Positions 19,625-35,782 of a DNA stretch of 64,000 nt are shown piece by piece (the first letter of the stretch is position 1; each line of letters opens with the position of its first letter). The position numbers and the translations under genes are program-made. The notes beneath the pieces are model-generated. The model ran no database searches and was not told the origin of the DNA. It saw only the letters and a list, made by a program, of their open reading frames with translations. Origin of the DNA: Paracoccaceae bacterium (lineage in GTDB: Bacteria; Pseudomonadota; Alphaproteobacteria; Rhodobacterales; Rhodobacteraceae); contig REBU01000105.1 in NCBI GenBank assembly GCA_007692585.1, positions 197 through 64,196 of the forward strand. The letters run 5' to 3'.

Positions 19625-19956
19625 GTCGCGATCACCCTTGTCTGATTGACAGTGACACTCGCGGGGCCTTGCGGCGCCCGGGTGGCGGCCAGCGCCAGAC
19701 TGGGCGAGGTCTGCAGCAAAACCGGTTGCCCGTTCACCAGCACACGCGCCGCAGGCATCAGCCACTGCACCGTGACACAGGGGCTGGGCGTAGGCCCGGG
19801 CAACTGAAAGGCGCAGCCCGCCACCACAGAGCTGTCCGCCAGCGTCGCGGCAGGCATCCCGCTGACCAGCACACGCGTATTGGACGAAATCGTGGTGACC
19901 TGGCCCCCATGCGGGCACATGGCGGTGGCTCCGACGTGGTAGATGGGTCCGGGCAT
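19621..19956 (-). CDS. PAAR-like spike-tip protein (Afp10-like)
   Basis: 111 aa. MPGPIYHVGATAMCPHGGQV...VSGMPAATLAD...VNGQPVLL. Identified by small size, position just after the spike gene and a PAAR/DUF4280-like repeat pattern. Confidence 0.6.
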   Translation of the reverse strand: MPGPIYHVGATAMCPHGGQVTTISSNTRVLVSGMPAATLADSSVVAGCAFQLPGPTPSPCVTVQWLMPAARVLVNGQPVLLQTSPSLALAATRAPQGPASVTVNQTRVIAT

Positions 19957-19986: not shown

Positions 19987-20508
19987 TCAGGTCACGACCA
20001 GCGCGCCTGCATTCACGGTCACGGTGGGTCCGGTCAGGGTGATGATCGCGCCCTTGCCGTTTGAGAGGGTGATGCCGACATCATTGATCGAAATGAGCGC
20101 GCCGGTCAGCGTCTTGAGCAGAATGCCCCCGGTCGGCCCAGGCGTATCCGACAGCATCAGCGTGGTCTGCCCCTGCGTCTGCAGCACGACATTCGGCGCA
20201 ACAGGCGCGGCCGCAAGCGCCAGCGCCGGGGGCTCGGCGGCGCTGCCATACCATCCGCCCACCCAGATCGGATAATCGGGATCGCCCTGTTCAAACTCCA
20301 CCCAGACGCCGGCCCCGATCTGCGGCAAGGCCCACATCCCCATCTGTATGCCCGTAAAGGGAAAGCAGGGCATCGCCCAGGTCGTGGGCAACAGCCCGTC
20401 CACATCGGGCACCTGACACAGCAGACGCCCTTTCTGCAGCGGATCAACGTTGTTTATGACATTGCCGCGATACTTGCCGAAAAATCTCCGATCTTCGCCT
20501 TCGCTCAT
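19987..20508 (-). CDS. gp5/gpV-type baseplate spike (OB-fold; Afp8 C-terminal equivalent)
   Basis: FFGKYRGNVINNVDPLQKGRLLCQVPDV...WAMPCFPFTG...GAGVWVEFEQGDPDYPIWVGGWY is the canonical Phage_base_V / Gp5 OB signature. Confidence 0.85.
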   Translation of the reverse strand: MSEGEDRRFFGKYRGNVINNVDPLQKGRLLCQVPDVDGLLPTTWAMPCFPFTGIQMGMWALPQIGAGVWVEFEQGDPDYPIWVGGWYGSAAEPPALALAAAPVAPNVVLQTQGQTTLMLSDTPGPTGGILLKTLTGALISINDVGITLSNGKGAIITLTGPTVTVNAGALVVT

Positions 20509-21653
20509 ACCGAAACCTCTTGGGTAAAAGATTCAACTGCATTGCGCGTCAACCGAAAGCTCTGCTTGAAACTGCCGCGCTGCAGCGTGGACGTGACTGA
20601 TTTGACGTAATAGGTGCCATCATGGGTCGGACCGCTGCCGCGCACTCCGACCAGGCCACGCGGGGCGAGAAGCCCGCCGTAACGCGCAACATCCAGACTG
20701 CCCGAGGCCGAGATCACATCCGCCCGCTCGGCAGCCCGCGCCATCCCGCGCATGGCCGCAGACAGGGCGTCGAATTTTGCCGTGCTGTCATCATCGCCTT
20801 GCGGCGCCAGGTTGCTCAGCAATGTGTAGCTCAGCGGCACCGGTGGTTTGCGGCCAAGCGGCGGATTGAGCGGGCCGATATCAGGCACGGGGATCGGGAT
20901 CGGCAGTTTTGAATTCTCTTCCTGATAGTAGAACACAAAAACCGACTTGCGCATCCCGTCAAACGAGATGTTGAGCGCGTCCACATTGCTGGCGCCGTCA
21001 ATATTCACACTCAGCGCAGGCTGGACCCGCCCGACCTTGATCTGCGGCCCCCAATAGGCAAAAGCCATGCCCGCGACCGGCCCCGGCTCGATGTAGAAGA
21101 CATAGCCGACCTGCGCGGCCAAGCGCCGGGCATAGGCCAGATCGGTGCCGCGTTGCTTGGGAATACGGTTCAGTGGGTTGGGCTGGGCGACAAGGACCGA
21201 GGGAACGACCTTGGGGATCAGACCATACATCGCGTATTTCGCGACCATCACGGCCACCCGGGCGGACGGCGGCATGGGCCAGGGGAAGCCTGAAAAGTCG
21301 ATCAGATCCATCACTTTCGACAGATCCGATCCGGTAATGGTCAGCGTGCTGGCCCCGGGATCGGAACTGGCGGCCAGCTCTGAAGTCGTGATCACCCCGT
21401 CCATCAGCACAGTGTCCTGCCCGTTCATGCCGACGACCAGAACAACCCTGCGGGGGGCGTCGAAAAAGCCCGCGGTCAGGTAGTCCATCAGCACAGGACC
21501 GCTCCGCGCGGCATGGAAGACGAGCTGAAAACCGCTCTGGCCGATATCGTTTTGCGTCACCTGCACACTGATCAGGGCATCAATCAGCTCTCTGGGGGCC
21601 GGTTCAGGCCGCACCGGCCCGATCAGCAGTTTCAGCGTGATCCCCTCGATCAT
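20505..21653 (-). CDS. phage late control gpD / gp27-like baseplate hub (Afp8 N-terminal equivalent)
   Basis: 382 aa. Carries QRGTDLAYARRLAAQVGYVFYIEPGP (the gpD/VgrG-type motif) and lies directly upstream of the spike gene. Confidence 0.7.
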   Translation of the reverse strand: MIEGITLKLLIGPVRPEPAPRELIDALISVQVTQNDIGQSGFQLVFHAARSGPVLMDYLTAGFFDAPRRVVLVVGMNGQDTVLMDGVITTSELAASSDPGASTLTITGSDLSKVMDLIDFSGFPWPMPPSARVAVMVAKYAMYGLIPKVVPSVLVAQPNPLNRIPKQRGTDLAYARRLAAQVGYVFYIEPGPVAGMAFAYWGPQIKVGRVQPALSVNIDGASNVDALNISFDGMRKSVFVFYYQEENSKLPIPIPVPDIGPLNPPLGRKPPVPLSYTLLSNLAPQGDDDSTAKFDALSAAMRGMARAAERADVISASGSLDVARYGGLLAPRGLVGVRGSGPTHDGTYYVKSVTSTLQRGSFKQSFRLTRNAVESFTQEVSV

Positions 21654-22018
21654 ACGCCGCCCCCCTCGGGATCCGGGCCGGTTTCCGGCGCGGGGTCCGG
21701 CTCAGGTTCTGGCACCGGCGGGGGCGGCTCTGCCGCGATCCGCAATCGGCGGCCCAGCGTTGCGGTCAGCTCTGTGGGGTCGAAGGCGCGGTTGGTATCG
21801 GCGATCCGCCACCAGAACGCAGCCGTGCCCAGCGTCGCAGCCGCGATCCGGTCGATCCTGTCGCCCTCGCTGACCCGGTGCGCGCCGATCTCGGGGGCGA
21901 CGGGCTCGGGGATGAACCGGCGGCGCAGATAGCGCACCATCACCCCGTCAGGCCCCGCCCGTTGGGTGATGGCGATGCCTGAATAGCGGCTTGTCTGATC
22001 GAACTTGTCTGCGCTCAT
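21650..22018 (-). CDS. LysM-like baseplate protein
   Basis: HRVSEGDRIDRIAAATLGTAAFWWRIADTNRAFDPTELTATLGRRLRI fits the LysM-like module seen fused to Afp7-type proteins. Ends in a Pro-rich tail. Confidence 0.6.
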   Translation of the reverse strand: MSADKFDQTSRYSGIAITQRAGPDGVMVRYLRRRFIPEPVAPEIGAHRVSEGDRIDRIAAATLGTAAFWWRIADTNRAFDPTELTATLGRRLRIAAEPPPPVPEPEPDPAPETGPDPEGGGV

Positions 22019-22031
22019 CTGTGCCCCCTGA

Positions 22032-22682
22032 TCATCCCAGACTATCCGCGCCCAGCGCCGCCAGACCGCCGGTCGTACCGCGTGCGGAAAGCGTCTCTTT
22101 CAGCCGGTGTTGCACCATGCTCAGACTGCCCCCGCGCGAGGCGAAAGGCAGATCGTTGACGCTGAGCGCGCGCATACCCAGCGTGATCCGCGCCCGGATC
22201 GGATTGAGCGCGGGATCAAACATTTCTTCCACCACCGAAAAGTCGGTGATCCGCACTGGCAGGATCCGCTTCGCCCCCCAGACGAACAACACCAGCGGCG
22301 CGACCACAGGCAGCACCTCGATCATGCCGCGCGCGGCAAGCGCGTCTTGCGCGGCCAGACTGTCGGCACTCGGATACAGGATCGTCTCCAGCGCGGCGAT
22401 ATCGCCTGCGACCCCGATCTCGCCGGAGGTGGCATTGCCCGCAGCCAGCCCGTCACTGGCATCGAGGACGGCCTCGAGATTGATCGTCTCGACCGGCGGG
22501 CCGGACAGGCGCAGCGCTTCCAGACGATCCCCGTCCTCGCCCGCGCCGCGCATCGAGACCGAGCGGTTCAGCATCTCGGGGTTGTACTGCAACGCAATCG
22601 CGCGGATCACCGACCCGCTGTCGCGCTCCATCAGGACAAGACCCCCCTTCAGCACGCGGGGCGAGCGGCTGTAACCTGTCAT
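22032..22682 (-). CDS. tube-initiator / CIS tube-like protein (Afp7-like N-terminal domain)
   Basis: IALQYNPEMLNRSV...INLEAVLDASD...APLVLFVWGAKRILPVRITDFSVVEEMFDPALNPIRARITLGMRAL is the pattern of contractile-injection tube N-terminal domain proteins. Confidence 0.7.
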   Translation of the reverse strand: MTGYSRSPRVLKGGLVLMERDSGSVIRAIALQYNPEMLNRSVSMRGAGEDGDRLEALRLSGPPVETINLEAVLDASDGLAAGNATSGEIGVAGDIAALETILYPSADSLAAQDALAARGMIEVLPVVAPLVLFVWGAKRILPVRITDFSVVEEMFDPALNPIRARITLGMRALSVNDLPFASRGGSLSMVQHRLKETLSARGTTGGLAALGADSLG

Positions 22683-22685: not shown

Positions 22686-24107
22686 TCAGTTTCCGATCAT
22701 GTCGCGGACCCTTTCATAGATCCAGAGCATCCGTTTCTCGTCTATGATGGTAAGTGTGGGGGGCGGCTCGGTGCCGAACCTGCGGTCAAAAAGCTCAAAC
22801 CTGTAGGGATGTGCATTTGACAGATAGGTTCCCACCATGATGTCGGTGCCGAATTGCGCGGCTAAGGCCGCACGCTCGGGCGAGAGGCCCAGTTGCAGGT
22901 ATTTCAGGCCCCAGAGGTTGAAATGCCCTGTAATGGCGTCATGGTCGCGCAGGTCGAACTGAACCCCGCGCGCGGCGGCCTCGCGTGCGACTGAACCCCA
23001 GTCATAGGTGGCGTCAAAGCGGTTCGGCGGCTGCGTCCAGAGATTCGGCGCAGGCGCAGGCCGCCGCGGTCCGGGCGGATCCGTCACAGCAGGGTCAAGC
23101 CTCTGGAGTGCCAGATCGAGGCCAAGCGCGGCAGGCGTGGTCGCAGACAGGAACGGCAGCTGCGGATCAGACGCACCGGGCGGCCGAAGCTGCAACGTGC
23201 CCGGCGCAAAGAAACTGTAGGTCTGCCGGCGGGGGAACAGCGAAAACGGACCGGGCATGGACAGGAAACTGCCATCCTCCGGCGTGATCAGATCGACGCC
23301 CGCGCGCCGATTATGGGGCGGCTCGCCGAAACTGTCGGTTTCACCATGCGCGTGCAGAAAAAAGCGCGTCCCGGCAGGCAGAAGCGGCAGCAACGCATCG
23401 CGCACCGCCACTGCCCTGTGCGCCGACAGGTTGCGGTTATACTCGGCAGGGCCTTCCTGGCTGGCATAGCCATGGATCATCACCACCAATTCACCAGCCT
23501 GCCCCTCGGCCATGGCGGCAAGGGCCGCGCGGCCCTGCGGCGTCAGCGTCGCGCTGTCATGCGCGAACAGGGTGTGATGATCCTCACTTCCCGGCGTGTC
23601 CATCGTCTCGAACGGCGCGTCCGGGGGGCGGCGACCGATGCCGGTCTGTGGCGCGTCCTCCTCGTCGCATTGGGTCAGGGTCGCGCCGCCGGGGAGGGCT
23701 TGCTGGACCGTATGGGCGATCTCATGGCGCATCCGGTGGGCGGCTTCCGGCGTCTCGGCTCGGGCATCTGCCGGGGTCATCGCGATGTCATGGCCCTGCG
23801 CCAGTGCCCGCGCACCGCGCGCATCCAGCGCCGCGCGCGCGGGCGCGTCGTCATGCAGGCGGACCCGGCTCAGATCCGCGCCAAGCCGCGCTTCCTCGGA
23901 TCGGCGCAGCGCGTCAGGCAACGGACGACCGAAGCCCGGAAGCGATGCTGCGCGCGGGCCATGGGGCGCGGGGCCAAGCCATGGGTCTGAGCTCTGCCGG
24001 GACGCTGCGCCCTCAGCCTCTGCCTCGGCGCGCATCCGCAGGGCGTGACGTGGCGGGACAAATCCGCTCCGGAGGTCTTGGGATATGGCAGGACGCTCTC
24101 TCATCAC
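22686..24107 (-). CDS. DUF4157 (eCIS core domain) + OmpA-like peptidoglycan-binding domain + unknown C-terminal domain; cargo, effector or anchor candidate
   Basis: The DUF4157 signature is GRPLPDALRRSEEARLGADLSRVRLHDD...HEIAHTVQQ, with HEIAH encoded at 23712-23726. The OmpA_C-like part is FAHDSATLTPQGRAALA...IHGYASQEGPAEYNRNLSAHRAVAVRDALL...NRRAGVDLI (about 23286-23576). I do not recognise the last ~190 aa. The start could be GTG 24107 or ATG 24104. Confidence 0.7.
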   Translation of the reverse strand: MMRERPAISQDLRSGFVPPRHALRMRAEAEAEGAASRQSSDPWLGPAPHGPRAASLPGFGRPLPDALRRSEEARLGADLSRVRLHDDAPARAALDARGARALAQGHDIAMTPADARAETPEAAHRMRHEIAHTVQQALPGGATLTQCDEEDAPQTGIGRRPPDAPFETMDTPGSEDHHTLFAHDSATLTPQGRAALAAMAEGQAGELVVMIHGYASQEGPAEYNRNLSAHRAVAVRDALLPLLPAGTRFFLHAHGETDSFGEPPHNRRAGVDLITPEDGSFLSMPGPFSLFPRRQTYSFFAPGTLQLRPPGASDPQLPFLSATTPAALGLDLALQRLDPAVTDPPGPRRPAPAPNLWTQPPNRFDATYDWGSVAREAAARGVQFDLRDHDAITGHFNLWGLKYLQLGLSPERAALAAQFGTDIMVGTYLSNAHPYRFELFDRRFGTEPPPTLTIIDEKRMLWIYERVRDMIGN

Positions 24108-27100
24108 TCAAAGCCCCGACAGGTTCAGGTTGGTCAGCCGCGCACCACGAACCCCGGCCGTCAGCCGCTCTGGCGTGAACGCCTGGAAAAATAGCTGCAC
24201 ATCGTGAAACCCTGTCAGATGCAGGGCCGCAGTTTCAGCCGTGACGCCGCCGAATGTCAGCGGACCGTTCGGACCGACCTCGATGCCGACAGTCCCGATG
24301 GCGAAAGTCAATTGCGAATTGGCGGCCGTCGGGTTGTTGATCAGGTCGCCGGTGAAATCCAGATCGATCGCGCGGCCCGGACTGCCGCCATTCACGACGA
24401 TACTGCCCGCTGCGCCAAGGTCGATAGGGGTCTGCGCAAGGGTAAAGTCGCCGACGATATTGCGCAGTGAAACAGGCGGTGGATCAGACGGCCCGGATGC
24501 GCTGTCATCGGAGTCGGAGTCGGACTCGGGCAAGCGCCGTCCCAGCGTTTCCAGCGTCGCTTCGCGGTTGGTGCCCGCACGTTCCCGCTCGGTCGCGTCC
24601 AGCTCCTCCCAGGCGAAGACTCCGAGTCTATAGGCAGGATTACGGCCATAAAAAGGGTTACGCCTGAGCTGTCCGATAAGTTTTCCATAATTCAGCTGGA
24701 CGACCAGCCGGTCGCCCTGAACATCGAAGACAATATACTCGCCCGCGCTGACGGTGCTGAGGATCTGATCGAAATTCACCGCCCCATTCGTCACCCGGAC
24801 CATGATGCTCTCCGTGAAGTGCAAAGGCGCATAATTGACGTCGAAATTCAGCGTGCCGTTGAGCGCGCGCAGGAAATCGAGGTTCTGCTGCGGCGCGTTC
24901 GGATCGTTTTCGCCGCTGACCAGCGCGCGAACATCTGCGATCTCGATGCGGGCTTCGGTCACGATCAGTTCCGGGATGTTCAGGCGGCCCGCCACCGGGG
25001 TGAATGTGACTGCGCGCGCCCCGCCCGCGCCGGGCAGGCTCGCGCTTTCAATATGCAGCTTGATGCCTTTGTCGGGCATCTCATAAGTCAGCCCCGACAG
25101 AACACCGCTGTCCAGCGTGACCGTCCCATCGCGATTGCGCGACAGGACATTGAGCCCGATACCCGCATTCGGAGCGCCGAAGCCTGCGGCCCCTGCCTCG
25201 GTCAAATCGAAAACATGCTCGCCAGCCTCTCCTGCGGTCCCGATGATGTTGGTTGCGGTCAGCCCTTGCAGGCTGAAGGCCATCCCCTGCGCCGCCAGAA
25301 AATCAAAGGTCAGCCCCGAAAGCTGAAGATCCGCCGTCGCGTTCAACATCCCCGTGATGTCCAGCGCAAGATCGTCGCCGGTGATCGTATCGATCTGCAC
25401 CAGACCAGTCGGCAGCCAGCTCTCGGGGTTGCTTGGGTCGGGCGTGATGCGAAACGCGGTCTCGGCAGGCTGCGGCTGCAACCTGAGATTCGACATGATC
25501 ACCGTCTCCGTCTCGGGCGCGCGCACGATCAGGTCGCGCGGCGTCGTTCCCTGCGCCGGATCACCCAGCGCCTTGTAGAGTGTCAGCGTGATCCCGCGCA
25601 TCGTGGTTGTGGGCACTTCGAGCCCGTGGATCTCGACCGCCCCGACAGGCTGCGCGGCATTGTCCGGGTCAAGGGCGAATTCGACATGCGCTGTGGTGCC
25701 GGTCAGCACCACCCGACCGCCCGTTTCGGGCACATCTATGCGCATCTGCTCGCTGGTGAACAGCAGCCGGTCCAGCGTGATCGTGGGGATTGTCAGATTT
25801 GGGACGATGATCCGGTCGCGGGTGCGGACTGCGCCCTGGACTGCCAGATCGCGCACAGAGACATCGACGGTGAGGCTGTCATTGATCTGACCGGCAACAC
25901 GGGCGTCCAGATCGGCGAGGTCCAACTGCTGGGTGCCATCGCGCAAAAAGGCAAGCTCCAGACCCGCCGCATCCACCAGCACGCCCAGGTTCATGTCATC
26001 CTCGATCAGACCAAAGGCCGCATGGGCGCTGGCCAGTCCGATCGTGCCGGCATCGCTCTGCCCGCCGGCCGCAACCCCGCCGCGCGCGGACCAGGCAAGG
26101 TTGCGCACGGCCAGTCCGACAATCTGCAAGGGCGGGGGCAGCGGCGTGCCCAGCAGGATCGCATCCTGCACCAGCTGCGGGTCTTGCCGGATGACGATCT
26201 CTCGCGACCCATCGCGGATCGTGATGTCCTCGCCGTCGATCTCGCGCACGCGCAGCGTCTCGATCTGCAACCGCGGATTGCCCTCCTCGCCGGTATCGAC
26301 ACTTGCATCGACGGTTATTCCGCGCAAATTCAACGGGCGCGCGCTGAAGATTTCGCGGGCTCCCGCGCGGAAATGGAAACGCGACAGTTGCGCGCTTGCA
26401 ATGCCAACCCCGACAAGCCGGGTTTCATCCCCCTGTCTCTCGATCCGGCCAGTGATCATGCCACTTGCGAAATCCACCTCGCCCTGCGGCATCCGCGCCG
26501 TTCCCGCACTCAGCCGCAGCCCCCCTTCGCGCGCGCGGCGGCCATCCGCCAGCTCTACGGCATGACCGAGTTCGATGATCTGTCCGCCATTCTCGACGAA
26601 GGCGATCGAGAGATGGGCACCCGTCAGCTGCGCCGAGCCGAAGTCAAGCACATCCTCCATCATCGCAAGACCGCGCACATTGTCGATCTGGTCAAGCTGC
26701 ACCTGACCCAACAGGACCGGAGCCGCTCTCTCGCCCGGTGGGAAGGCGATGGACAGCCCGGACGCGTCGATCCCCAGAAGCGCGCCCCCGTCGATCTCGA
26801 AAATGCTGCTCTGGTAGCGGCCTTGTGCATCGGGGGCGAGCGGATCCGGCGCGTTATGGGTGCTTGCGAAACCCAGATAGCCTGCTTCCAGCCGCTCGAT
26901 GCGGAATTGGCCCAGCTCGGCCCGGATCATGCGGTATTGGGTCGGATCTTCGGCTGTCTGCTCGAAATGCAGATCGGCCGTGACGGCAATGCCCGTGGCT
27001 GTCGTGGCACCATTCGAGTAGATTTGACTGATGCGGATGCCGCCATGTTCGGCGGCTGGCACATCTTCCCGGCTGGTCATGACGAACCGGTCCAGAAACA

Positions 27101-30100
27101 GCCGCTCGATGGTCAACCTGTCGATTGCGATATGGGTGTTCGAGACCATGAAACGGCCCGACATCTCATCTGCCTCGATCTGCCCGGCCTCCGTTGCGCC
27201 GAAGCGGGCATCGCTGAGCGAGAGGCGGCGCAAAAGGCGCCGTCCGTCCGCACCGCCCGTCCCTTCGATGGTAACCCCCCGGTCCCGCGCAGCGCCCATG
27301 TCAAAACCGCTCTCGCCCAGAGGGCCAAGCCCGGTGATCCGAACCGCCAGATCTTCGACCACCCCGGACCGTGCGGCAAAACGCTTCTCCCACAGCAGAT
27401 ACAGGCTGATCACATCGGCGCGCTGCGCCACCAACCGCGCGCGCGCATCGCCCTCGGCCAGACCGATCTCTGCATCGAGCCGCGCCAGAAGCCGCTCGAA
27501 GCCGTCGATCACGTCCAGAGCCTCGCGCAAGGCCGCGATTGCGGCGGTATCTGTGGCGGTGCGCTGGTCAACGGGCTTGGCCATCGCCGCTGCAATCTGG
27601 GCGTCCACCCAGGCCCGGCTGGCCCGACCGTGCAGCCCGTCCACGCCAAGGGTCGCGGCCTGCGCATCCAGCCTGCCCGCGCGGGTGTCGAGGGCGATCT
27701 CGAACCCCTCTGCCCCGACCCGGTCCGCGCTCAGCGCCATGTCCTGATGCAAGAGATCCGTCACCGACAGTTGCGCCCCCGACAGACCAACCCGCGCCAG
27801 ACGCGCCTCGAGATCGGCGAACCCTCGCAACCCGTCGGCCACACCGAGCGACAAGGTGACATTGCGGCCCTCGGCGCTGCCAAGGCTGAACGCACCGGCA
27901 CGGATCGCGGCCCCCTGCGCGCCGCTTTGCGCCGGATCGCCGGTCGCCTGAAACGCTTGCGCCGCAAGGATCAAGCTGCCAGCTTCGGCCGAGAACCCAA
28001 GCTGGGCACCTTCGACTTGCAGATGGTGCAGGTAGACGGCCTCGCTGGCCAGAAGCTGGGTGCGCAGCCGCGCCAGTTCGTCCGCCTCCGCGCGCGGCAG
28101 ATGCGTCACCCCGGCCCGGGCGAGTTCCAGATAGCGCTCGGTGGCCGCCAGACGCTCTTGCGCAGCGGCTTTGGCCGCGACAAGCTGCGGGTCCCAACTG
28201 CGCTCCTCCAGCGCTGCGCGCGCGCGCTCCAGAGCGGCCTGCGTATCTGAAAGCTTGGGGATCGCGCCCCGGATCGTCACCTCCTCGAGCGTGAAATCCG
28301 GCAGGTCCAGCCGGAACTCGGCCGGATCGCGCCGCAATGCGGGGGCGGTGGCATTGCGATGTGCGGGCCCCTGCACAATCCGGCCCAGCGCTTCACTATC
28401 GATCAGAAACGCCAGGAGACCCGCAGAGCCGGCACCGCGCCCATGCAGATCGGTCAAGGTCGGCAGATGGCCATTGATCGCGCCTGACAGCCCGGTGACA
28501 ACCAGCGCGCCTGCGTCCAGCGTCATGCCCCCTTGCGCATAAGGGGCCAGAACTTCCTGCGCCGCGGCAAGGCGGGCTTGATCCGCTGGCAACAGATCGT
28601 CCAGCGCGCCCAGTTGCGCGACCACAGCGCGCGCGTCAAGGATCTGCCGCGAGAGGTCTGTCAGCGCCGCCACACGCTGCGCCAGATCTGCGACCCGCGT
28701 CTCCAAGGCCGCGCGTTGGGGTCCATCCGGCAGGCGCTGCGCCGCGACCATCAGCCGGACCTTCTGCCCAACATTGGCATCCATGCTCTCAAACAGGATC
28801 TTCAGGTAATCATCCACTGTGCCCGCAATTCCCAGACGCACATTCTCCAGGCTCGCCTCGGCCACATGCTGCCCGCTGGACATAGTGAGCCCGGTCAGCT
28901 TCAACGTGTCGAAACTGACCACAAGTGGCGACGGCACCTGCGGAGTGGTCAGGCCATCGGTGATCTCCTCCACCCGGCCGCCCATGGTGACCATGAAGCC
29001 CAGCGGACGCAGCAACCAACTGAACGGCGCCGTCAGCACCGCGCCCACCCTCGCGCCCGTATCCGCCGCGCGCATCTCGCCCGACAGCGCTTCGCGGCCA
29101 AGGCGGATGTTCAGCCCCGTGACCTCGATGCGGTTGATCGCCGTCATCGCGTCGCGCTGGATCAGCAGAGTGTCGGTCAGATCCAGACGGCCGATGCTGA
29201 GCACCATATTTGTGGGCCGGTGGCCTTCGCGCGTCCCGATATTGAGGCTCATTGCAAGGGTCTCGACCATGCCGCCCTCTGCCGCAAACAGCAGGTCGCC
29301 CATCGCATAGCGCACCCGGGCGAGATCCAGCGCGCGGGCTTCCAGCTCCAGCACGCCCCGACGCCGGTCCCAATAGGCGCGGTCGATGTAATTCACACCG
29401 CGCTCCGCCGCGCGCGCGGCCACCAGCGCATCGCGCCGTTCCTGGCTCAGGGATGGGTCGGTGCCTTCCGCCAGCCGGAACCCCATGATGGAGCCGCCCA
29501 TCAGGTTTTGCAGCGATACGCCGTCAATTCCCTGTCCGCCGACGCTGCGCCCGAACATCACATTGCCGACCAGCGCCGCGCCTTCGCGGCTATGATAAAG
29601 CAGGCTGATCAGATCGCCGAAGGCCTCGAACGCTCCCGCAATCCCGGAGCCGAAGCCGTTATATTGCCAGGACGTGGCCTCGGGCGACCATGAGACGCGC
29701 CGCGTGCCATCAGGGCGCTCCGAATTGAACAACATCAGCGGCGTGACGATGGCCGCCACGAAGTCGGGGTCCATGTAGCGTTCCGGGTCCAGATCATGGA
29801 CTTCGCGGCTGCGCAGGAACACCCACTCCCCCTCGCCCGCGGCAACCGCCATACGGATCAGCCCACGCAACCGACCTGCCGTCGCCACCCGCCAGAGCGC
29901 ATCGTCCAGAAGCTGCGCCTGGATCGAGGCCAGATCCGTGCGTCCCTCGCCGCCGCGGTAGAAATTCATCCCCAGCTCTTCGCGCATCTCGGCCGATAGC
30001 GCGCCCGAGATCTTTTGCGCGATCGCATCGCCGTTTTCTGCCAGAAGGGCCGCGCGCATGGCATCGGGCAGGGTCTTGATCAGGTGCCAGGCAAGAAAGG

Positions 30101-31520
30101 CTTCCTCTGCCGAGATCGTGTTGAAGATCCAGAATTCACTCAACAGCGCTTCCGCCAGCAGGACATTGTCGGCCGGACGGCGCAGGCTGGCCACCCGCAA
30201 CAAGGTCTCGATCCGGGTGAATTGTACGCCACCAGCAGCGCCACGGTCATTGGCCTCGCGCAGCGCGCGCACCGGGAGGCCGCGCAACAGCCGGTCCAGC
30301 AGGTCGGTCCGATGGCGTGGCGGCTGCAAGTTGTGGACAACGCCCTCGAAGATCTGTGGCCGTCCCATCAGCCCCGCGAGCCGGTCCAGCGCTTCCAGCC
30401 GGGCCGCGTCATCAGGATCTTCCAGCAAGGCGTGAAGGGCGGTGATCGTGGCCAGACCGCCGGCATCGTCGCGCGCCGCCATAATCGCAGCCGCGCGGGC
30501 CTGCCTGCGATCCGCCAGCGCGTCACGCGCGGCGGTTCCCGCAGTGGCTGGATTGTAAAGCTCACGCGCACGCTCGCGAAGATCCGTGTCCAGTAATTCA
30601 GCCACATGCGTGCCCTGCACCGGATGCCTGCGCAGCGCGGTCAGCGTCGCCTCGGTCAGCCCCATGTCGAAAATCGTGCCGAGGCAGGCAATCTCCTGCG
30701 GTGTCAGGCCCGAAAACTCCATCCCTTCAAACAGATCCGCACCGGACCCGATGATCACCTCGGGCTCGGTCACGCTGAAGGCCGCAAGGATCACGCTGCG
30801 AAACCGGGCAAAATGGCCCGGCGAGACATTGTCCACAAGGGTCGCGCGCTCATCAGGTGTCAGCGCCGAAAACACGGCCTGCTGGATCTCCAGCGGTTCG
30901 GCCTCAACGAGCGTGAACATCTCGCGCACGGCGCCATCGGTGACCCACAAGAAGCCAAGCCAACCGCGCAGCAAGCGCTTGATGCGCGCGATCTCGGTGG
31001 CGAATTCGGTTTGCACCAGATCCGCGAGCGAGGTGTCATGCAGGGTCGTATCGGGCGCGATCCGGGCACGGGGCCGGTGCAAGACGCGCCCCTCGGCGGC
31101 GCGACGCCCTGCGTCCAGCGCTTCTGTCTCGGCCAGGGCCAGACGTGCGCGGGGCAACACCCGGCCCGGCGCGCGGGTCTGGGCGAGATGGGTCAATTCA
31201 TGGGCCAGCAGCGCGCGCGCCGCCCCGTCACCGGCGCGCAGACTGGCGCGCAGACTGGTGTCGCAAAGCTGGACACGCCCCGCTGACAGTCGCCCGCGCA
31301 GGCCCGGACGATCCAAATCAAGCTGCACCAGATCAGGGTCGGAAGGAAGCCCCAACGCCTGGGCGAGCCCGGTGAACCCCGCGCTCTCCAACGCGGCAGT
31401 CTTGTCCGGCAAGAGCGTCAGACCCAGCGCGACCGTGACCGGCGCGCCATTGTGCGCCAGCACAGGCTCCGCGCTCTCAGCCCTGGGTGCGGGCAAGGGA
31501 AGACGCACAGCCTCGTTCAT
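24108..31520 (-). CDS. giant (2470 aa) DUF4157-family protein of unknown function; prime cargo/effector candidate
   Basis: Uninterrupted 7413-nt ORF. The N-terminal region ends in ALLAHELTHLAQ, with HELTH encoded at 31188-31202. The remainder has no catalytic motif I recognise. It shows many short amphipathic strand-like repeats (IEVTGLNIRLG, LKLTGLTMSSG, LAVRITGLGPLG, LTIERLFLDRF, IETLRVREIDGEDITI, IVGLAVRNLAWSA, VEIHGLEVPTT). An acidic linker ESDSDSDDSASGPSDPPP lies at 24474-24527. Its ATG overlaps the upstream small-ORF stop. Confidence 0.75.
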   Translation of the reverse strand: MNEAVRLPLPAPRAESAEPVLAHNGAPVTVALGLTLLPDKTAALESAGFTGLAQALGLPSDPDLVQLDLDRPGLRGRLSAGRVQLCDTSLRASLRAGDGAARALLAHELTHLAQTRAPGRVLPRARLALAETEALDAGRRAAEGRVLHRPRARIAPDTTLHDTSLADLVQTEFATEIARIKRLLRGWLGFLWVTDGAVREMFTLVEAEPLEIQQAVFSALTPDERATLVDNVSPGHFARFRSVILAAFSVTEPEVIIGSGADLFEGMEFSGLTPQEIACLGTIFDMGLTEATLTALRRHPVQGTHVAELLDTDLRERARELYNPATAGTAARDALADRRQARAAAIMAARDDAGGLATITALHALLEDPDDAARLEALDRLAGLMGRPQIFEGVVHNLQPPRHRTDLLDRLLRGLPVRALREANDRGAAGGVQFTRIETLLRVASLRRPADNVLLAEALLSEFWIFNTISAEEAFLAWHLIKTLPDAMRAALLAENGDAIAQKISGALSAEMREELGMNFYRGGEGRTDLASIQAQLLDDALWRVATAGRLRGLIRMAVAAGEGEWVFLRSREVHDLDPERYMDPDFVAAIVTPLMLFNSERPDGTRRVSWSPEATSWQYNGFGSGIAGAFEAFGDLISLLYHSREGAALVGNVMFGRSVGGQGIDGVSLQNLMGGSIMGFRLAEGTDPSLSQERRDALVAARAAERGVNYIDRAYWDRRRGVLELEARALDLARVRYAMGDLLFAAEGGMVETLAMSLNIGTREGHRPTNMVLSIGRLDLTDTLLIQRDAMTAINRIEVTGLNIRLGREALSGEMRAADTGARVGAVLTAPFSWLLRPLGFMVTMGGRVEEITDGLTTPQVPSPLVVSFDTLKLTGLTMSSGQHVAEASLENVRLGIAGTVDDYLKILFESMDANVGQKVRLMVAAQRLPDGPQRAALETRVADLAQRVAALTDLSRQILDARAVVAQLGALDDLLPADQARLAAAQEVLAPYAQGGMTLDAGALVVTGLSGAINGHLPTLTDLHGRGAGSAGLLAFLIDSEALGRIVQGPAHRNATAPALRRDPAEFRLDLPDFTLEEVTIRGAIPKLSDTQAALERARAALEERSWDPQLVAAKAAAQERLAATERYLELARAGVTHLPRAEADELARLRTQLLASEAVYLHHLQVEGAQLGFSAEAGSLILAAQAFQATGDPAQSGAQGAAIRAGAFSLGSAEGRNVTLSLGVADGLRGFADLEARLARVGLSGAQLSVTDLLHQDMALSADRVGAEGFEIALDTRAGRLDAQAATLGVDGLHGRASRAWVDAQIAAAMAKPVDQRTATDTAAIAALREALDVIDGFERLLARLDAEIGLAEGDARARLVAQRADVISLYLLWEKRFAARSGVVEDLAVRITGLGPLGESGFDMGAARDRGVTIEGTGGADGRRLLRRLSLSDARFGATEAGQIEADEMSGRFMVSNTHIAIDRLTIERLFLDRFVMTSREDVPAAEHGGIRISQIYSNGATTATGIAVTADLHFEQTAEDPTQYRMIRAELGQFRIERLEAGYLGFASTHNAPDPLAPDAQGRYQSSIFEIDGGALLGIDASGLSIAFPPGERAAPVLLGQVQLDQIDNVRGLAMMEDVLDFGSAQLTGAHLSIAFVENGGQIIELGHAVELADGRRAREGGLRLSAGTARMPQGEVDFASGMITGRIERQGDETRLVGVGIASAQLSRFHFRAGAREIFSARPLNLRGITVDASVDTGEEGNPRLQIETLRVREIDGEDITIRDGSREIVIRQDPQLVQDAILLGTPLPPPLQIVGLAVRNLAWSARGGVAAGGQSDAGTIGLASAHAAFGLIEDDMNLGVLVDAAGLELAFLRDGTQQLDLADLDARVAGQINDSLTVDVSVRDLAVQGAVRTRDRIIVPNLTIPTITLDRLLFTSEQMRIDVPETGGRVVLTGTTAHVEFALDPDNAAQPVGAVEIHGLEVPTTTMRGITLTLYKALGDPAQGTTPRDLIVRAPETETVIMSNLRLQPQPAETAFRITPDPSNPESWLPTGLVQIDTITGDDLALDITGMLNATADLQLSGLTFDFLAAQGMAFSLQGLTATNIIGTAGEAGEHVFDLTEAGAAGFGAPNAGIGLNVLSRNRDGTVTLDSGVLSGLTYEMPDKGIKLHIESASLPGAGGARAVTFTPVAGRLNIPELIVTEARIEIADVRALVSGENDPNAPQQNLDFLRALNGTLNFDVNYAPLHFTESIMVRVTNGAVNFDQILSTVSAGEYIVFDVQGDRLVVQLNYGKLIGQLRRNPFYGRNPAYRLGVFAWEELDATERERAGTNREATLETLGRRLPESDSDSDDSASGPSDPPPVSLRNIVGDFTLAQTPIDLGAAGSIVVNGGSPGRAIDLDFTGDLINNPTAANSQLTFAIGTVGIEVGPNGPLTFGGVTAETAALHLTGFHDVQLFFQAFTPERLTAGVRGARLTNLNLSGL

Positions 31521-31747
31521 CGCTCCAGTGCCTCGATCAGGGCGCGCGCGGCCGCCGCGCCAATACGCTCAGGCCCATGCGCAGATGCAGCGGTCAGGAT
31601 TGTGCGCTCGGGCAGGACCGGCGGTCCCGACAGGCCCGCGCGCGCAAGTTCGGTGCGAAATCCGTCCAGAACGCGCTGGCTGTCACCGGCTGAAAACCCG
31701 TTGAGCGCGACGGCGCCGATCTCGAATTGCAGGGCCGCGCGGGTCAT
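31517..31747 (-). CDS. small hypothetical protein (76 aa), translationally coupled on both sides
   Basis: MTRAALQFEIGAVALNGFSAGDSQRVLDGFRTELARAGL... Its ATG (31745-31747) overlaps the ATPase stop, and its stop overlaps the giant gene's ATG. I recognise no motif. Confidence 0.45.
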   Translation of the reverse strand: MTRAALQFEIGAVALNGFSAGDSQRVLDGFRTELARAGLSGPPVLPERTILTAASAHGPERIGAAAARALIEALER

Positions 31748-33612
31748 GTCCAGCCCCCGGTCTCGGCCTCGGTCAAGGTCTTGTCGAGTTTGGCGCATTC
31801 CGCCTCCGCCGCGTGGGCGAGATCGGCCATGCGGATCGGACGGTCTGCCTCTGCGGCCAGAAAAGCCGCCGTCAGCGCAATGTTGCGGATCGCCCCGCCG
31901 GCGACAGAGAGCTTCGCCAGCAACGCAGGATCCAGCCCCTCGGTGCGCGCGCCTGCCGGGAAAGCACGCTGCCAGATGCGCAACCGTTCGGCATATCCGG
32001 GAAAGGGAAACTCCACGACAAACCGCAGCCTGCGCGCGAAAGCCTTGTCCAGCGCCGCGCGGAAATTCGTCGTCAGGATGGCCAGACCGCGATAGGTTTC
32101 CAGCCGCTGAAGCAGATAGGCGACCTCCATATTGGCGTAGCGGTCGTGACTGTCACGCACTTCGGATCGCTTCCCGAATAGCGCATCCGCTTCGTCAAAA
32201 AGCAGGATCGCGCCCCCGTCTTCCGCTGCATCGAACACGCCCGCGAGGTTCTTCTCCGTCTCACCGATATATTTGCTGACCACCTGGCTCAGGTCGATGC
32301 GGAACAGATCGAGGTCCAGATCGCGGGCCAGCACTTCCGCCGCCATGGTCTTGCCCGCGCCCGAGGGTCCGGCAAACAGCACACTGACCCCCAAGCCGCG
32401 GCCTGCAGAGCTGGTAAAACCCATCTGTCCATAGACCCGCTGGCGCTGGCGCACCTGCGCGCAGATCGCGCGCAGGGTGCGGGTTTCGCGCTCGGGCAGG
32501 ATCAGATCATCCCATCCCGCACCGGACACGATCTCTTGCGCAAGATCGCGCAGGCGCGGGCGCGATACGGCGCGCGCGGCGTTCCACAAAGTCTGGCGCG
32601 CGGCCTCGGGCGCCGCATCGAGCAGCGGCGCGGCGGCCTGGGCGGCTTCGGTGACATCGGAATAGCCCAGCGTGAAATGCCGCGTCACCGCGTCCAGCGC
32701 CCCGTTGAGCCGTGCTGCGCGCTGGCCCAGCTGCGCGCGCCACAGCAAGTCCTGTTCGGCCGGGGCGATCGGGGCAAGCCGCACCCGAAGGCGGGGCCGC
32801 GCGCAGGCACTGGCCGCGCCGCATCCGTGCACCATCAGCATGCCCGGCCCGGAGGCCAGCTCAGCCAACGCAGCGTGTGGCATCGCGCCCTCAATCAGCA
32901 AGGCCCGTCCGGCAAGCACCACCTCGCGCGTCCACAGCGTTGCAAAGCCGCGCCGCTCGACCGCGCTTGCGCCCAGATCAGGACCATGCAGCGCCCAGAC
33001 AAAACGCTGGCCCACCGCCGCCGCGGCGGCGGCAAGGGCACGCGCATCGCGCGGATCATCGCTGTCGATCTCAACAAGTGGCGGGGTTGCAGACGCCGTT
33101 GCGCGCCAGATCTGCAGCGCGTGCTGAGCCAAGGCTTCCGGCAGCGCTTCGGGCCGGGGCAGCGCCGTGAGCATCGGGGCCAGCCGGGTGTCCATCGGCG
33201 CCAGCCCCACGAGATGATGCAGGATGCGCTCATCCAGTGTGATCTCGGCCCGTGCGAGCGGCCGTGCGTCGGACAGACGGATCAATTCCCACCGCCGCAA
33301 CGGCCCTTGCGGCGAGAGCGCACTCCAATGCGCGCCCTCCAGCCGGGCGAGCGGCAACGCGAAAGACAGCACGCTGCGCTCTTCGGGGTCCAGCTGCCTA
33401 AGCGCCGGGGCCAGCGCCTCATCCACCTCGATGCCGGCGGCCAGCACCAGAATATCCTGCTCGAAAGGGCTCAGGCCGAAGGCATGGACGATCTCGCGCA
33501 GGCGGGGATGGTCGGGCAAGGGCGCATCCCCCCCCTCCAGCCTGGCCCGCGCAGCAGCGCAGAGCCCGCGAAGCGCCGCGAAACCGTCCCGCTCTGTGGC
33601 CATGAGCGTCAT
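31744..33612 (-). CDS. AAA+ ATPase (Afp15-like CIS assembly ATPase)
   Basis: The C-terminal AAA module has Walker A GPSGAGKT and Walker B ILLFDEADALFGKRS, followed by ANMEVAYLLQRLETYRGLAILTTN. A ~350-aa non-ATPase N-terminal region precedes it, as in Afp15/Pvc15-type proteins. Confidence 0.85.
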   Translation of the reverse strand: MTLMATERDGFAALRGLCAAARARLEGGDAPLPDHPRLREIVHAFGLSPFEQDILVLAAGIEVDEALAPALRQLDPEERSVLSFALPLARLEGAHWSALSPQGPLRRWELIRLSDARPLARAEITLDERILHHLVGLAPMDTRLAPMLTALPRPEALPEALAQHALQIWRATASATPPLVEIDSDDPRDARALAAAAAAVGQRFVWALHGPDLGASAVERRGFATLWTREVVLAGRALLIEGAMPHAALAELASGPGMLMVHGCGAASACARPRLRVRLAPIAPAEQDLLWRAQLGQRAARLNGALDAVTRHFTLGYSDVTEAAQAAAPLLDAAPEAARQTLWNAARAVSRPRLRDLAQEIVSGAGWDDLILPERETRTLRAICAQVRQRQRVYGQMGFTSSAGRGLGVSVLFAGPSGAGKTMAAEVLARDLDLDLFRIDLSQVVSKYIGETEKNLAGVFDAAEDGGAILLFDEADALFGKRSEVRDSHDRYANMEVAYLLQRLETYRGLAILTTNFRAALDKAFARRLRFVVEFPFPGYAERLRIWQRAFPAGARTEGLDPALLAKLSVAGGAIRNIALTAAFLAAEADRPIRMADLAHAAEAECAKLDKTLTEAETGGWT

Positions 33613-34904
33613 ATCGTCACCTGCGGTCCATTGAAGCTGCCATCCGCGGCCTGTGTCAGCCCCGTTTCCGCCGCATCGACCTGCACCCGGATCAGATAAG
33701 CCCCGGCGACGACCGCGCTGATCGCCACAGCAACCGATGCAGCCTCGGCAGTCGTGGCGGGCAAGCCGTTGCCGGGCGGCGCGCGAAAGCTGTAGCTGAG
33801 CCCTGAGCCGTCCACCGCATTGAGCGCCAGCGCCACCGCCTGCGCACGCCCGACCGCAGGGGCAAAACTCAAGGTCACGGTCCCGTCCCGCAGCGTAACC
33901 CCGTCGCGCACCTGCGAGGCGCTGGCGACAAAAGCGGCGGTCACGCGGGGCGCGATCACCAGAACGGCGGGGGTCGACACCGCGATCTCGCGCAGCTCTG
34001 GCGGCATGCCGAGAGGCGCGCGATGCGCGACTGTCACCGCCAACGCCCCGGCGCGCAGTCCGGTCGGCAGCGGGTCGGGAAGATTGAAAACCAGCCGGTC
34101 AGGCTGGCGCTGGGTCACCTGCGCGGTCAGATCCTCCGGGCCCAGACGCAGGATCATGTCAGCCGCCGCCAAATCCGCGCCCAACACCTCGACCGTGCTG
34201 CCTGGCAATACCGGCCCCGGCGCGGCACCCTGCGCCCGGACCGCGTCGATCCGTGGCCGGCCCTGCCCGGTCGCCCCGACACTGACACCCTGCACCGGCA
34301 ACGCCTTTCGGGTCGTCAGATCACTGTCGATCAGTACAGTCGTGACGCGATAGGCAAGCGTTGGCCGGTAGCGTGCCTGCAGCGCGCTCCAGAGTTTCGA
34401 GATTTCCTCGTTCGACATCGCCTCAGGGGTGATGCGCAGCGTCTCGAACTGATCGGCAAGCCCGGTTGCATCCAGCCCGCTGGGCCAGCCCGCAGGGGGT
34501 GCGGCCGGGGACAGTGCCCGCGCAATCATGGCCCGCGTTGGCACCGGGATCTCGTGAAACAGCTGCGCGGTCCGGCCCAGCAGGATCTCGGCCAGAAGCG
34601 GGGCCGCGCCATAGACCGTGATCAGCAGATGCAGATCCAGCGCCAGCGGTGGGGCCGAAACCCTCTGGCCGCGCGCGTCGCGGGTCGGCGCGTCCATATT
34701 CGCCCAGCCAAGGTTCCGGCTGACCTGATGCAGGAAGACATTGACCTGCGTGGGTTCGGCTGTCGACAGATCGACCCGGTCCGGTGGCAGGCTGCTGACC
34801 GTCACCGGCCCCACCGCAGAGGCCACAGGGGCTGCGGCGAACGCATTGGCGAGCATATCGCGCAGCAGCGCCGTGACACCTGCGATGGCCAGTGCGGTGC
34901 TCAT
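33609..34904 (-). CDS. DUF4255 (Pvc16_N) tail terminator/cap protein (Afp16-like) with long C-terminal extension
   Basis: IAGVTALLRDMLANAF...VTVSSLPPDRV...VNVFLHQVSRNLGWAN is the DUF4255 signature. About 235 additional C-terminal residues are beta-rich and Ig-like in pattern. Confidence 0.75.
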   Translation of the reverse strand: MSTALAIAGVTALLRDMLANAFAAAPVASAVGPVTVSSLPPDRVDLSTAEPTQVNVFLHQVSRNLGWANMDAPTRDARGQRVSAPPLALDLHLLITVYGAAPLLAEILLGRTAQLFHEIPVPTRAMIARALSPAAPPAGWPSGLDATGLADQFETLRITPEAMSNEEISKLWSALQARYRPTLAYRVTTVLIDSDLTTRKALPVQGVSVGATGQGRPRIDAVRAQGAAPGPVLPGSTVEVLGADLAAADMILRLGPEDLTAQVTQRQPDRLVFNLPDPLPTGLRAGALAVTVAHRAPLGMPPELREIAVSTPAVLVIAPRVTAAFVASASQVRDGVTLRDGTVTLSFAPAVGRAQAVALALNAVDGSGLSYSFRAPPGNGLPATTAEAASVAVAISAVVAGAYLIRVQVDAAETGLTQAADGSFNGPQVTI

Positions 34905-35782
34905 CGTGACGGGCCCTTGCGCGGGTCGAGATACGCGTCCAGCGACAGGGTCGGCCCGCGCCGCACCGGACCGCGCGGGCGCGCGGGGGACGGAGCTGGC
35001 GCGGGGGCGTTTATCTCGATCCGGTCAATGCGGATCGTCACCGGGGGCGGGGGTGGCGCGGCCCGCTCGGTCGGGCGTGCCAGATCCCGCAGCGCAGCGG
35101 TTGGCCCCCTCAAGGCAAATGGTGCGGCTGACGAAGGCACAGGTGCAGCCGGTGCGCGCGGCGCAGCCGCCGCGGCACTGCGAAACGGGGACGCGGCGAC
35201 TTGCGGTGGGGACGCGGCGACACCGGGTCTGGACACAAGCACGGCAGGATCTGTTGCGATCCGCAGATGGGATGACGGGGCGGCCGGGGGATCGTCGCGT
35301 CTCGGGCTCGGGGTGGGCGGTGCCACCCGACGCGGGACTGTCGCAGACGGCTGGCCAGTGGCAAGGTCGAGATCTGCGCGGTCGTGGGGCGCCGGCGCGA
35401 CTGAAGCCGGGCGCGCTTCCTCTGACGCCTCGCGCAGCGCCGGTGGCATGGCGGCGCTGGTGGCCAAAACGCCGTTCTCAGCGGCGCGTTCCGGGAGCAG
35501 TGGTCGGGGCTCTGGCGGTGCGGCAGAGTTCTCGCTTTCGCGCAACCGCTCTGGCAGGGGCTGCGGCATCGACACGGACAGCGCGCCGAGCGAGGGCTCT
35601 TCAGGGGGCCGTGGCGGCACCGCGCGCATGACGCGATCCTTTGGTGCAAGCTGATCGGGTGCAAGCTCTGGCTCTGCATCCGCGACTGTCATCTCTGGGA
35701 TAAAGCCCGGCGCGATCTGCGCTGCAACGGGGGTCTCCATACCGTTGCAGCGATCAAGCAGACGGTCGAACAACCCGCTCAT
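34901..35782 (-). CDS. Pro/Ala-rich protein, putative tail tape measure (Afp14 functional analogue)
   Basis: 293 aa, low complexity and visibly Pro/Ala/Arg-rich. N-terminus MSGLFDRLLDR; C-terminal block PPPPPVTIRIDRIEINA...TLSLDAYLDPRK. Sits between the tube-side genes and the cap. Start and stop both overlap neighbours. Confidence 0.45.
   Translation of the reverse strand: MSGLFDRLLDRCNGMETPVAAQIAPGFIPEMTVADAEPELAPDQLAPKDRVMRAVPPRPPEEPSLGALSVSMPQPLPERLRESENSAAPPEPRPLLPERAAENGVLATSAAMPPALREASEEARPASVAPAPHDRADLDLATGQPSATVPRRVAPPTPSPRRDDPPAAPSSHLRIATDPAVLVSRPGVAASPPQVAASPFRSAAAAAPRAPAAPVPSSAAPFALRGPTAALRDLARPTERAAPPPPPVTIRIDRIEINAPAPAPSPARPRGPVRRGPTLSLDAYLDPRKGPSR

Follow-up and report, generated by a model that had tools for sequence, protein, structure and literature searches.

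The stretch analysed here, a 64,000-nucleotide segment of contig REBU01000105.1 (hereafter the window) whose host is probably a diderm, a Paracoccaceae alphaproteobacterium, carries on its minus strand a complete contractile injection system (CIS) operon. One of its genes encodes a protein of 2470 amino acids (aa), referred to as the giant, that opens with a divergent DUF4157 head and occupies a position which is filled by unrelated DUF4157-headed proteins in sister loci. On balance, and with somewhat better than even confidence, we read the giant as a non-enzymatic CIS cargo that is loaded into the tube lumen and ejected, and neither as a tail-length ruler nor as a core structural gene. An earlier note on this DNA, made from the letters alone, had likewise proposed a DUF4157-headed cargo or effector candidate inside a CIS operon. 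Family-level matches and the gene content of the operon bear out the head and its setting, and the cargo assignment is the best-supported reading in view of the variable slot, the cargo-like architecture and the synteny.

The gene is a single ATG-started frame of 7413 nt (24108-31520, minus strand, stop codon counted) with no internal stop, as had been described. A word-indexed search of 5.8 billion proteins returned only 13 relatives, all of them full-length homologues (2381-2602 aa, 22-61% identity), and because these exist the open reading frame (ORF) is a genuine gene. The TGA of a small ORF upstream overlaps the ATG of the giant as ATGA, and the stop codon of the preceding AAA+ ATPase gene overlaps the ATG of the small ORF in the same manner. 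These two 4-nt overlaps therefore link ATPase, small protein and giant in one coupled chain, while the GTG of the next gene directly abuts the TGA of the giant. The coupling claimed earlier thus stands; comparison with homologous loci makes 76 aa the most likely length of the small ORF (31517-31747, minus strand), and not 93 aa.

The first 37 residues of the giant (31410-31520, minus strand) are poorly conserved and predicted to be disordered, with predicted local distance difference test (pLDDT) scores of 26-37, and constitute a candidate loading sequence. They are followed by the divergent DUF4157/eCIS_core head (residues ~40-145; 31086-31403, minus strand), modelled by AlphaFold2 as a compact alpha/beta domain. 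Its gluzincin-like signature includes an HExxH motif, HELTH, at residues 107-111 (nt 31188-31202), exactly where the earlier note had placed it. That note had also named a failure of the N-terminus at the DUF4157 hidden Markov model (HMM) thresholds as a reason to abandon the head. Taken literally, such a failure is what is found, which counts against the assignment: the match of the window sequence to PF13699 is limited to residues 97-117 and scores 16.5 bits (E 0.0098), below the Pfam gathering threshold of 22 bits. The head is rescued solely at the level of the family. PF13699 matches 11 of 13 homologues in the close set and 15 of 18 in the wider set (best E 1.6e-12), and conversely the giant-family HMM finds Pfam-defined DUF4157 regions of unrelated CIS proteins with E-values of 1e-10 to 9e-13. 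H107, E108, H111 and Q114 are invariant among the 18 sequences; E131 lies 20 residues further on from H111 and does not vary in the 13-member alignment, with conservation of at least 90% among the 18. This H111-to-E131 spacing is of the thermolysin (gluzincin) type. A weak match of the 13-member profile to the minimal gluzincin MJ1213 in the PDB (E 1.6), confined to the head, agrees with such an assignment, and pairwise BLASTP between the head and the bona fide DUF4157 of the neighbouring protein is not significant, so that only profiles link the two. Among the 139 family members of at least 2000 aa, 128 keep the N-terminal head, and the giant lies inside a CIS locus in the window, in all five homologue contexts and in three further loci (L019, L006 and L010). 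By profile comparison, the head is thus assigned to DUF4157/eCIS_core at family level.

One argument for a cargo role comes from the position of the gene. In the window, the order runs from sheath and tube through a 226-aa and a 293-aa protein, Pvc16_N, the AAA+ ATPase and the 76-aa ORF to the giant, which is followed by a DUF4157 protein with an OmpA-like domain, a CIS_tube-like protein, a 122-aa and a 382-aa protein and a VgrG-like spike. Thereafter come a PAAR-like 111-aa protein, gp25, two Baseplate_J-like proteins, a 761-aa protein and a DUF6519 protein. Five of the 13 close relatives could be placed on contigs, and all five share this order from the sheath through gp25 and the baseplate, with the giant succeeded by the DUF4157-OmpA protein; the corresponding proteins measure ~230, ~290 and ~110 aa, and the small ORF ~76-85 aa. 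The slot between the ATPase/76-aa ORF pair and the tube-initiator/spike hub genes is filled differently elsewhere. Plasmid pMYCSM01 of Mycobacterium sp. JS623 has the gene order of the window, with a 359-aa and an 1819-aa DUF4157 protein in the slot; the latter displays transmembrane-like hydrophobic peaks (1.8-2.2) and has only the DUF4157 head in common with the giant. Rhizobium leguminosarum pRL23b7, which of all plasmids in the collection has the sheath most similar to that of the window (67.6% identity), carries a single DUF4157 protein of 693 aa in the slot, and Ensifer adhaerens a 1419-aa HExxH protein. Among 80 metagenomic loci found via the ATPase, the giant occurs in one alone, which is the closest of those with downstream DNA (70% identity); in several others, the ATPase is immediately followed by a DUF4157 protein of 511-1926 aa. 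The slot proteins of L066 (3310-8682), L017 (11944-17721) and L037 (11870-17536) align with the giant in the DUF4157 head only, and that of L066 ends in an Endonuclea_NS_2 domain, which corresponds to the architecture of the Streptomyces protein Tme (see the last section). One of these three loci encodes an 1889-aa protein with two DUF4157 domains, and one of the three slot proteins has apolipoprotein-like helical repeats.

Across this CIS lineage, the slot proteins thus have unrelated bodies and measure between 693 and ~2750 aa, while the structural genes remain alike. Since the same position with the same flanks harbours differing DUF4157-headed bodies, the slot is, as far as gene order and alignments can tell, an exchangeable payload position whose occupants have only the DUF4157 head in common. 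This is how a cargo slot behaves, rather than a ruler or a core structural gene. It also weakens a structural or envelope-associated role, which the earlier note had offered as an alternative, as sister loci have unrelated DUF4157 proteins of far smaller size in the slot.

The protein encoded directly after the giant (22686-24107, minus strand; 473 aa) is a presumed co-cargo. It combines a disordered N-terminus and DUF4157 with an OmpA-like peptidoglycan-binding domain, whose motif is intact (NLSAHRAVAV, fitting the canonical N-x2-L-S-x2-R-A-x2-V); a signal peptide was looked for in this partner and none was found. A DUF4157-OmpA protein directly follows the giant in the window and in 7/7 diderm homologue loci examined, some of the OmpA matches in those seven being weak or under the Pfam cut-off, and none was recognised among the ORFs checked beside actinobacterial giants. 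Because a peptidoglycan-binding domain made in the cytoplasm otherwise makes no sense, these features suggest that the partner is delivered to the cell-wall compartment, and its co-conservation with the giant in diderm loci suggests the bacterial periplasm as destination.

Body and family of the giant protein

AlphaFold2 models were computed in two pieces from 13-sequence alignments, covering residues 1-1200 (mean pLDDT 69) and 1271-2470 (mean pLDDT 77; 76.6). The best-conserved part of the body is a predicted all-alpha solenoid (residues ~165-600; 29721-31028, minus strand; pLDDT ~80-90) with the motifs EIARIKRLLRGWLGFLWVTDG and NFYRGGEGR.DLASIQ.QLLDDALW. From about residue 660 onwards, the models become rich in beta structure, mostly in form of long strands that account for about 1800 aa. 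According to DSSP, long beta-hairpins alternate with coiled-coil helical hairpins in residues ~660-1400 (27321-29543, minus strand), followed by an almost pure long-strand beta region with strands of 15-27 residues (residues ~1400-2280; 24681-27320, minus strand). Window-by-window HMMs resolve this latter region into about four degenerate tandem modules of 205-230 aa (~215), with off-diagonal matches down to E 1.7e-11, and the beta-rich, repetitive body described earlier is thereby corroborated. A similarity between residues 920-1000 and 1310-1395 was seen only in the P0014 homologue. An acidic Ser/Asp/Pro linker, ESDSDSDDSASGPSDPPP (residues 2332-2349; 24474-24527, minus strand), that is modelled with low confidence leads to the C-terminal 121-aa beta module (24111-24473, minus strand; pLDDT 82-91), both precisely as delimited before. 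This module is kept in 117 of the 139 full-length family members.

No transmembrane helix is predicted in the giant (maximum 19-residue Kyte-Doolittle mean 1.51), and neither a signal peptide nor a lipobox nor an N-terminal signal anchor was detected. Searches of Pfam, NCBIfam and PHROGs with 18 members as well as PDB sequence searches returned no enzyme or toxin domain in the body, in agreement with the earlier statement that the remaining ~2350 aa contain no catalytic or toxin motif. The PDB sequence searches, with the whole protein and with the 13-member profile, yielded nothing significant (best E 1.2). Foldseek comparison of the N-terminal model with the PDB gave only weak ARM/HEAT-like matches (E>0.05). 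For the C-terminal model, the top rank went to LptD (E 1e-5, probability 0.72; TM-scores 0.08-0.10), porins, beta-barrels and DDB1 propellers scored nearby, and the viral BFVD collection contained no match. Hence, no convincing structural relative of the body emerged from these comparisons.

Members of the family are rare and widely distributed, and both their architecture and their size vary unusually little. When the 18-sequence alignment was used as a profile on the 5.8-billion-sequence database, behind a word prefilter, only two proteins joined the first set. An exhaustive HMM search, in which residues 160-1250 were compared with 1.84 billion representatives clustered at 50% identity, revealed 226 clusters at E<=1e-3, 136 of them at E<=1e-30. 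For the 139 members that reach 2000 aa or more, the median length is 2477 aa (5-95% range 2233-2730 aa), and the mean among 49 members is 2505 +/- 92 aa. At least five phyla are represented. Distant members come from Verrucomicrobiae, Myxococcales, Novosphingobium resinovorum, Caulobacter, Microbacterium, Actinacidiphila, Streptomyces, Catellatospora and Micromonospora, and a member from Blastocatellia is a partial match ended by the contig edge. The N. resinovorum copy resides on megaplasmid pSA1 and was the sole match in a tblastn search of plasmids. Most distant members are colinear with the close-subfamily HMM from the head to the C-terminal module at ~20% identity, while the Microbacterium and Verrucomicrobiae copies match it only part-way.

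No Pfam, NCBIfam or PHROG model other than DUF4157 and T6SS_Tse3_N matched the members tested, the latter domain being present besides DUF4157 in P0046 and P0049. In an outlier of 3199 aa (P0148), the C-terminus is extended by ~780 aa, in which a Cys...His pattern occurs. The idea that unmatched C-terminal tails of outliers are swapped toxin domains (P0148, CHAP/NlpC amidase-like) was dropped after Pfam and PDB searches remained blank.

Candidate roles of the giant protein

A plausible route for the giant as cargo would start with its co-translation with the ATPase and the 76-aa protein via the two ATGA overlaps. Devoid of signal peptide and transmembrane helix, it stays in the cytoplasm, where its disordered N-terminus of ~37 aa may serve as a loading signal that is read by the adjacent AAA+ ATPase, as work on AlgoCIS, PVC and Streptomyces systems suggests. 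By analogy with other systems, the ATPase could then feed the giant, at least partly unfolded, into the inner tube's lumen, and the DUF4157 head may dock it on the tube-initiator/spike complex encoded just downstream. Contraction of the sheath would expel the giant together with the neighbouring DUF4157-OmpA protein, whose signal-less peptidoglycan-binding domain points to the bacterial cell wall or periplasm as possible site of action. Conceivably, the released body refolds into an elongated alpha-solenoid with repeated beta-sheet and acts on the envelope physically, by binding, bridging or disrupting it, and not catalytically. Such a physical mode is proposed because the body has no enzyme signature and an elongated repeat architecture; any action after delivery is nevertheless speculative. 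In terms of space, a rough volume estimate of ~330 nm3 for 272 kDa compares with a lumen section of ~12.6 nm2, which would place one copy in a few tens of nm of tube. No immunity-like gene follows the giant, as the earlier note had also observed.

Several points weigh against this cargo reading, beyond the sub-threshold head score of the window sequence. Loading and ejection of the giant family would rest on comparison with other systems. AlphaFold2 predicts a confidently folded protein of ~270 kDa (pLDDT 69-77), whereas a lumen of ~4 nm demands an unfolded or very slender form. The whole architecture is conserved across phyla, including the C-terminal module and the narrow length range given above, and this end-to-end conservation looks unlike that of typical polymorphic effectors and more like that of a mechanical or structural part. 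Furthermore, the gene lies mid-operon, whereas many eCIS (extracellular CIS) toxins are encoded at the 3' end, and a search of the giant for toxic or membrane-active motifs found none.

The conserved length is also one argument for a first competing explanation, according to which the giant is a tape-measure protein, or a ruler and cargo in one, that threads the lumen during assembly, plugs into the spike or hub with its C-terminal module and determines how long the tail becomes, in line with the ancestry proposed for Tme. We regard this as unlikely. It would account for the location of the largest ORF just upstream of the tube-initiator/spike genes, which is the classical tape-measure position, for a length that is tightly kept at ~20% identity (the 49 members above), and for a conserved C-terminal module behind a flexible linker; moreover, no other ORF of the operon matches a tape-measure model. 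However, the body is predicted as an alpha-solenoid plus ~1800 aa of beta-sheet and not as an extended helical rod, and similarity to phage tape measures was found neither in PHROGs (18 members) nor by tblastn of 50,697 phage records nor by the BFVD fold search. A published rise of 0.2156 nm per residue would translate 2470 aa into a tail of ~530 nm, and the slot proteins vary from 693 to ~2750 aa in one lineage with otherwise similar structural genes. In addition, the 293-aa Pro/Ala-rich protein encoded after the tube gene offers an alternative ruler candidate.

End-to-end conservation of architecture and length would equally fit a scaffold or anchor that stays outside the tube and is not injected, for example an assembly platform or an envelope tether acting with the OmpA partner, comparable to the anchors of thylakoid-bound or Streptomyces CIS. 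Alpha-solenoids are typical scaffolds for protein-protein contacts, the fold is predicted with confidence, and the peptidoglycan-binding partner is co-conserved in diderm hosts. Yet signal peptide, lipobox and transmembrane segment are absent from both the giant and the partner, and they hence cannot reach the envelope of an intact producer. Sister loci of the lineage manage without any equivalent, and a disordered N-terminus followed by a DUF4157 head marks a protein as loaded cargo. A scaffold or anchor of this kind is therefore rather improbable in our estimate.

A bolder variant of injection treats the giant as a non-catalytic "structural effector". Threaded unfolded by the ATPase, it would refold in the periplasm of the target into a repeated beta-sheet rod of tens of nm, be pinned to peptidoglycan by the DUF4157-OmpA protein delivered with it, and, as a conduit or wedge of the TamB/LptD kind, span the envelope or break through it. 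The invariant gluzincin site of DUF4157 might process the giant after delivery. If this were true, the conserved length would reflect the envelope distance that is spanned and not the length of the tail. We give this specific scenario a low probability.

A bridge-like lipid-transfer or membrane-inserting beta-taco of the AsmA/TamB/LptD kind, either endogenous or injected, is likewise improbable. The long antiparallel strands in tandem repeat modules do recall such proteins, and LptD models head the Foldseek list. Their TM-scores of at most 0.10 are, however, matched by those of generic beta-barrels and beta-propellers, no AsmA, TamB or DUF748-type Pfam model matched any of the 18 members (E<=0.01), and the N-terminus is disordered where a signal anchor would be needed. 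The resemblance to AsmA/TamB suggested in the earlier note is consequently not supported.

Finally, a spurious or decaying ORF has practically no probability left: long chance ORFs are common in high-GC genomes, and the opposite strand indeed carries a typical high-GC shadow ORF of 1143 aa (24819-28250, plus strand), but the local composition of about 66% G+C implies ~2.4% stops among random codons and hence P ~1e-26 for 2470 codons without one, and the 226 homologous clusters with colinear conservation, shared synteny and invariant residues of the catalytic site already refute it.

DUF4157-headed proteins are the commonest predicted eCIS payloads. In the giant family, the region behind DUF4157 is not a linker but a conserved, structured, repeat-built body of ~2300 residues without enzyme domain, whose length is near-constant across at least five phyla within an otherwise freely exchanged slot. 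Should it be loaded and injected, the giant would rank with the largest CIS payloads, and its action would involve no recognisable catalytic domain. This would bear on how much and what kind of protein a CIS can carry, a practical matter for programmable delivery systems. With its putative cargo function, the family would provide a clear handle on cargo capacity and on non-enzymatic effectors.

Remaining genes of the operon

All other components are encoded on the minus strand as well, with ruvAB located upstream of the operon. RuvB shares a 90%-identity cluster with proteins of Natronohydrobacter, Roseinatronobacter and Paracoccaceae MAGs, on which the probable assignment of the host is based. 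The sheath (37092-38942) and tube (36555-37079) genes are followed by that for the 226-aa Cys-rich protein (35779-36459). Its two CxxC pairs (CPSCRTE..., CSACGT...) probably form a zinc ribbon. The protein has a weak match to a PHROG baseplate-hub family, its homologue in L004 matches Pfam T4_baseplate, and it may be a hub-assembly factor.

The Pro/Ala-rich protein of 293 aa (34901-35782) is evidently extended or disordered and has no database match. Its N-terminus (MSGLFDRLLDR) and its C-terminus (VTIRIDRIEINAP) are conserved. Equivalents of 254-300 aa occupy the same position in seven related loci, and that of a Streptomyces plasmid has 479 aa. The protein is a candidate for the tail-length ruler or for an assembly scaffold of this CIS lineage.

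Next come the Pvc16_N cap (33609-34904) and the AAA+ ATPase with a winged-helix domain (31744-33612), which belongs to the Afp15/Pvc15/Alg15 class and is the presumed cargo loader. The 76-aa ORF behind it matches no family. Positional equivalents of 75-85 aa are found in every locus of the lineage regardless of the slot protein, and a motif, I..L.L.GFS...R....F..EL.R, is clear in the 76-aa ORFs of giant-carrying loci and partial in the Mycobacterium and Rhizobium copies. The small protein may be a loading adaptor or chaperone.

Downstream of the partner lie the baseplate hub genes (19987-22682), encoding a tube-initiator-like (CIS_tube-like) protein of 216 aa, the 122-aa and 382-aa proteins and the VgrG-like OB spike. 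A mechanically called 216-aa ORF (19268-19918) over-extends gp25. Judged by homologous loci, the true layout consists of the PAAR-like 111-aa gene (19621-19956) followed by a gp25 of ~118 aa. The last gene of the operon (9092-11857) encodes the DUF6519 protein with immunoglobulin (Ig)-like and CarboxypepD_reg-like domains, which is probably a fibre or receptor-binding protein. The DUF6519 family is also annotated in the CIS locus of a Streptomyces europaeiscabiei plasmid (L098), an operon whose baseplate half is inverted.

Comparison with known systems

The closest published analogues of the giant are Tme with the tme-like genes and the AlgoCIS cargos Cgo1 and Cgo2. Tme of Streptomyces davawensis (BN159_7576) is a 2247-aa protein with an N-terminal DUF4157, transmembrane helices and ~70% predicted disorder that shows remote tape-measure similarity, ends in an EndA-like nuclease and co-purifies with the spike and the tube initiator (Nagakubo et al. 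2024, PMC11126660). In the same study, the criteria for "tme-like genes", in a CIS group that extends across phyla, were the length of the ORF, a DUF4157 at the N-terminus and synteny; one cluster of this related group is plasmid-borne, and JS623 pMYCSM01 appears in its sheath and tube tables (PMC11126660). The JS623 plasmid locus discussed above is probably that cluster. Like Tme, the giant is the largest ORF, carries DUF4157 at its N-terminus, is encoded directly upstream of the tube-initiator/spike genes and is of similar size (2470 vs 2247 aa), and by this combination of length, head and synteny upstream of the baseplate genes it qualifies as a tme-like gene in the published sense (PMC11126660). 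In contrast to Tme, it contains no transmembrane helices, no EndA/Endonuclea_NS nuclease and no DRGH motif, and it is predicted to be folded and lacks tape-measure similarity. Its body is unrelated to those of tme-type proteins, with Tme considered by its published description and the 1819-aa JS623 protein as sequence proxy.

Cgo1 and Cgo2 (498 and 1228 aa) consist of a disordered N-terminal domain, DUF4157 and a C-terminal domain and fill the tube lumen; their loading requires the disordered domain and the AAA+ protein Alg15, whereas DUF4157 is dispensable (Xu et al. 2022, PMC8894135; PROCIS preprint, 10.64898/2026.05.27.728243). The giant shares this layout, with a disordered N-terminal domain (residues 1-37, pLDDT <40), a DUF4157 head and a large C-terminal part, as well as the tandem arrangement of DUF4157 genes and a Cis15-type ATPase. 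Its C-terminal part is, however, unrelated, the gene pair lies mid-operon between the ATPase and hub genes, and AlgoCIS possesses a tape measure of its own, Alg14. In Streptomyces, the DUF4157 protein Sle2 binds the tube initiator.

The earlier note had compared the giant in size with the very large Afp18-type cargo toxins. This is apt, as Afp18 of the Serratia Afp (~2370 aa) shows that a cargo of about this size is feasible, although the two groups above are closer. The gene for Afp18 is the 3'-terminal one of its operon and is not accompanied by an immunity gene; the protein has recognisable toxin domains and no DUF4157. The giant resembles it as an eCIS cargo candidate on the ~2400-aa scale without immunity gene and differs in its mid-operon position, its DUF4157 head and the lack of a recognisable toxin domain.

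With the AsmA/TamB/LptD proteins, the giant has in common long antiparallel strands in repeated modules, LptD being the top Foldseek match; unlike them, it shows no family match, membrane anchor or secretion signal, and the TM-score does not exceed 0.10. DUF4157-toxin fusions with very long linkers, in which more than 1000 aa precede the C-terminus, are specific to eCIS (Geller et al. 2021, PMC8213781). The giant likewise continues for more than 1000 aa between its DUF4157 and its C-terminus, but here the "linker" is a conserved, structured and repeat-built body, and the 121-aa C-terminal module matches no toxin family. The body family has no Pfam model and is not described in the papers found to mention both DUF4157 and contractile injection. 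Taken together, large DUF4157-headed CIS payloads and the "tme-like" slot were known already, and what the giant adds to them is a new body family.

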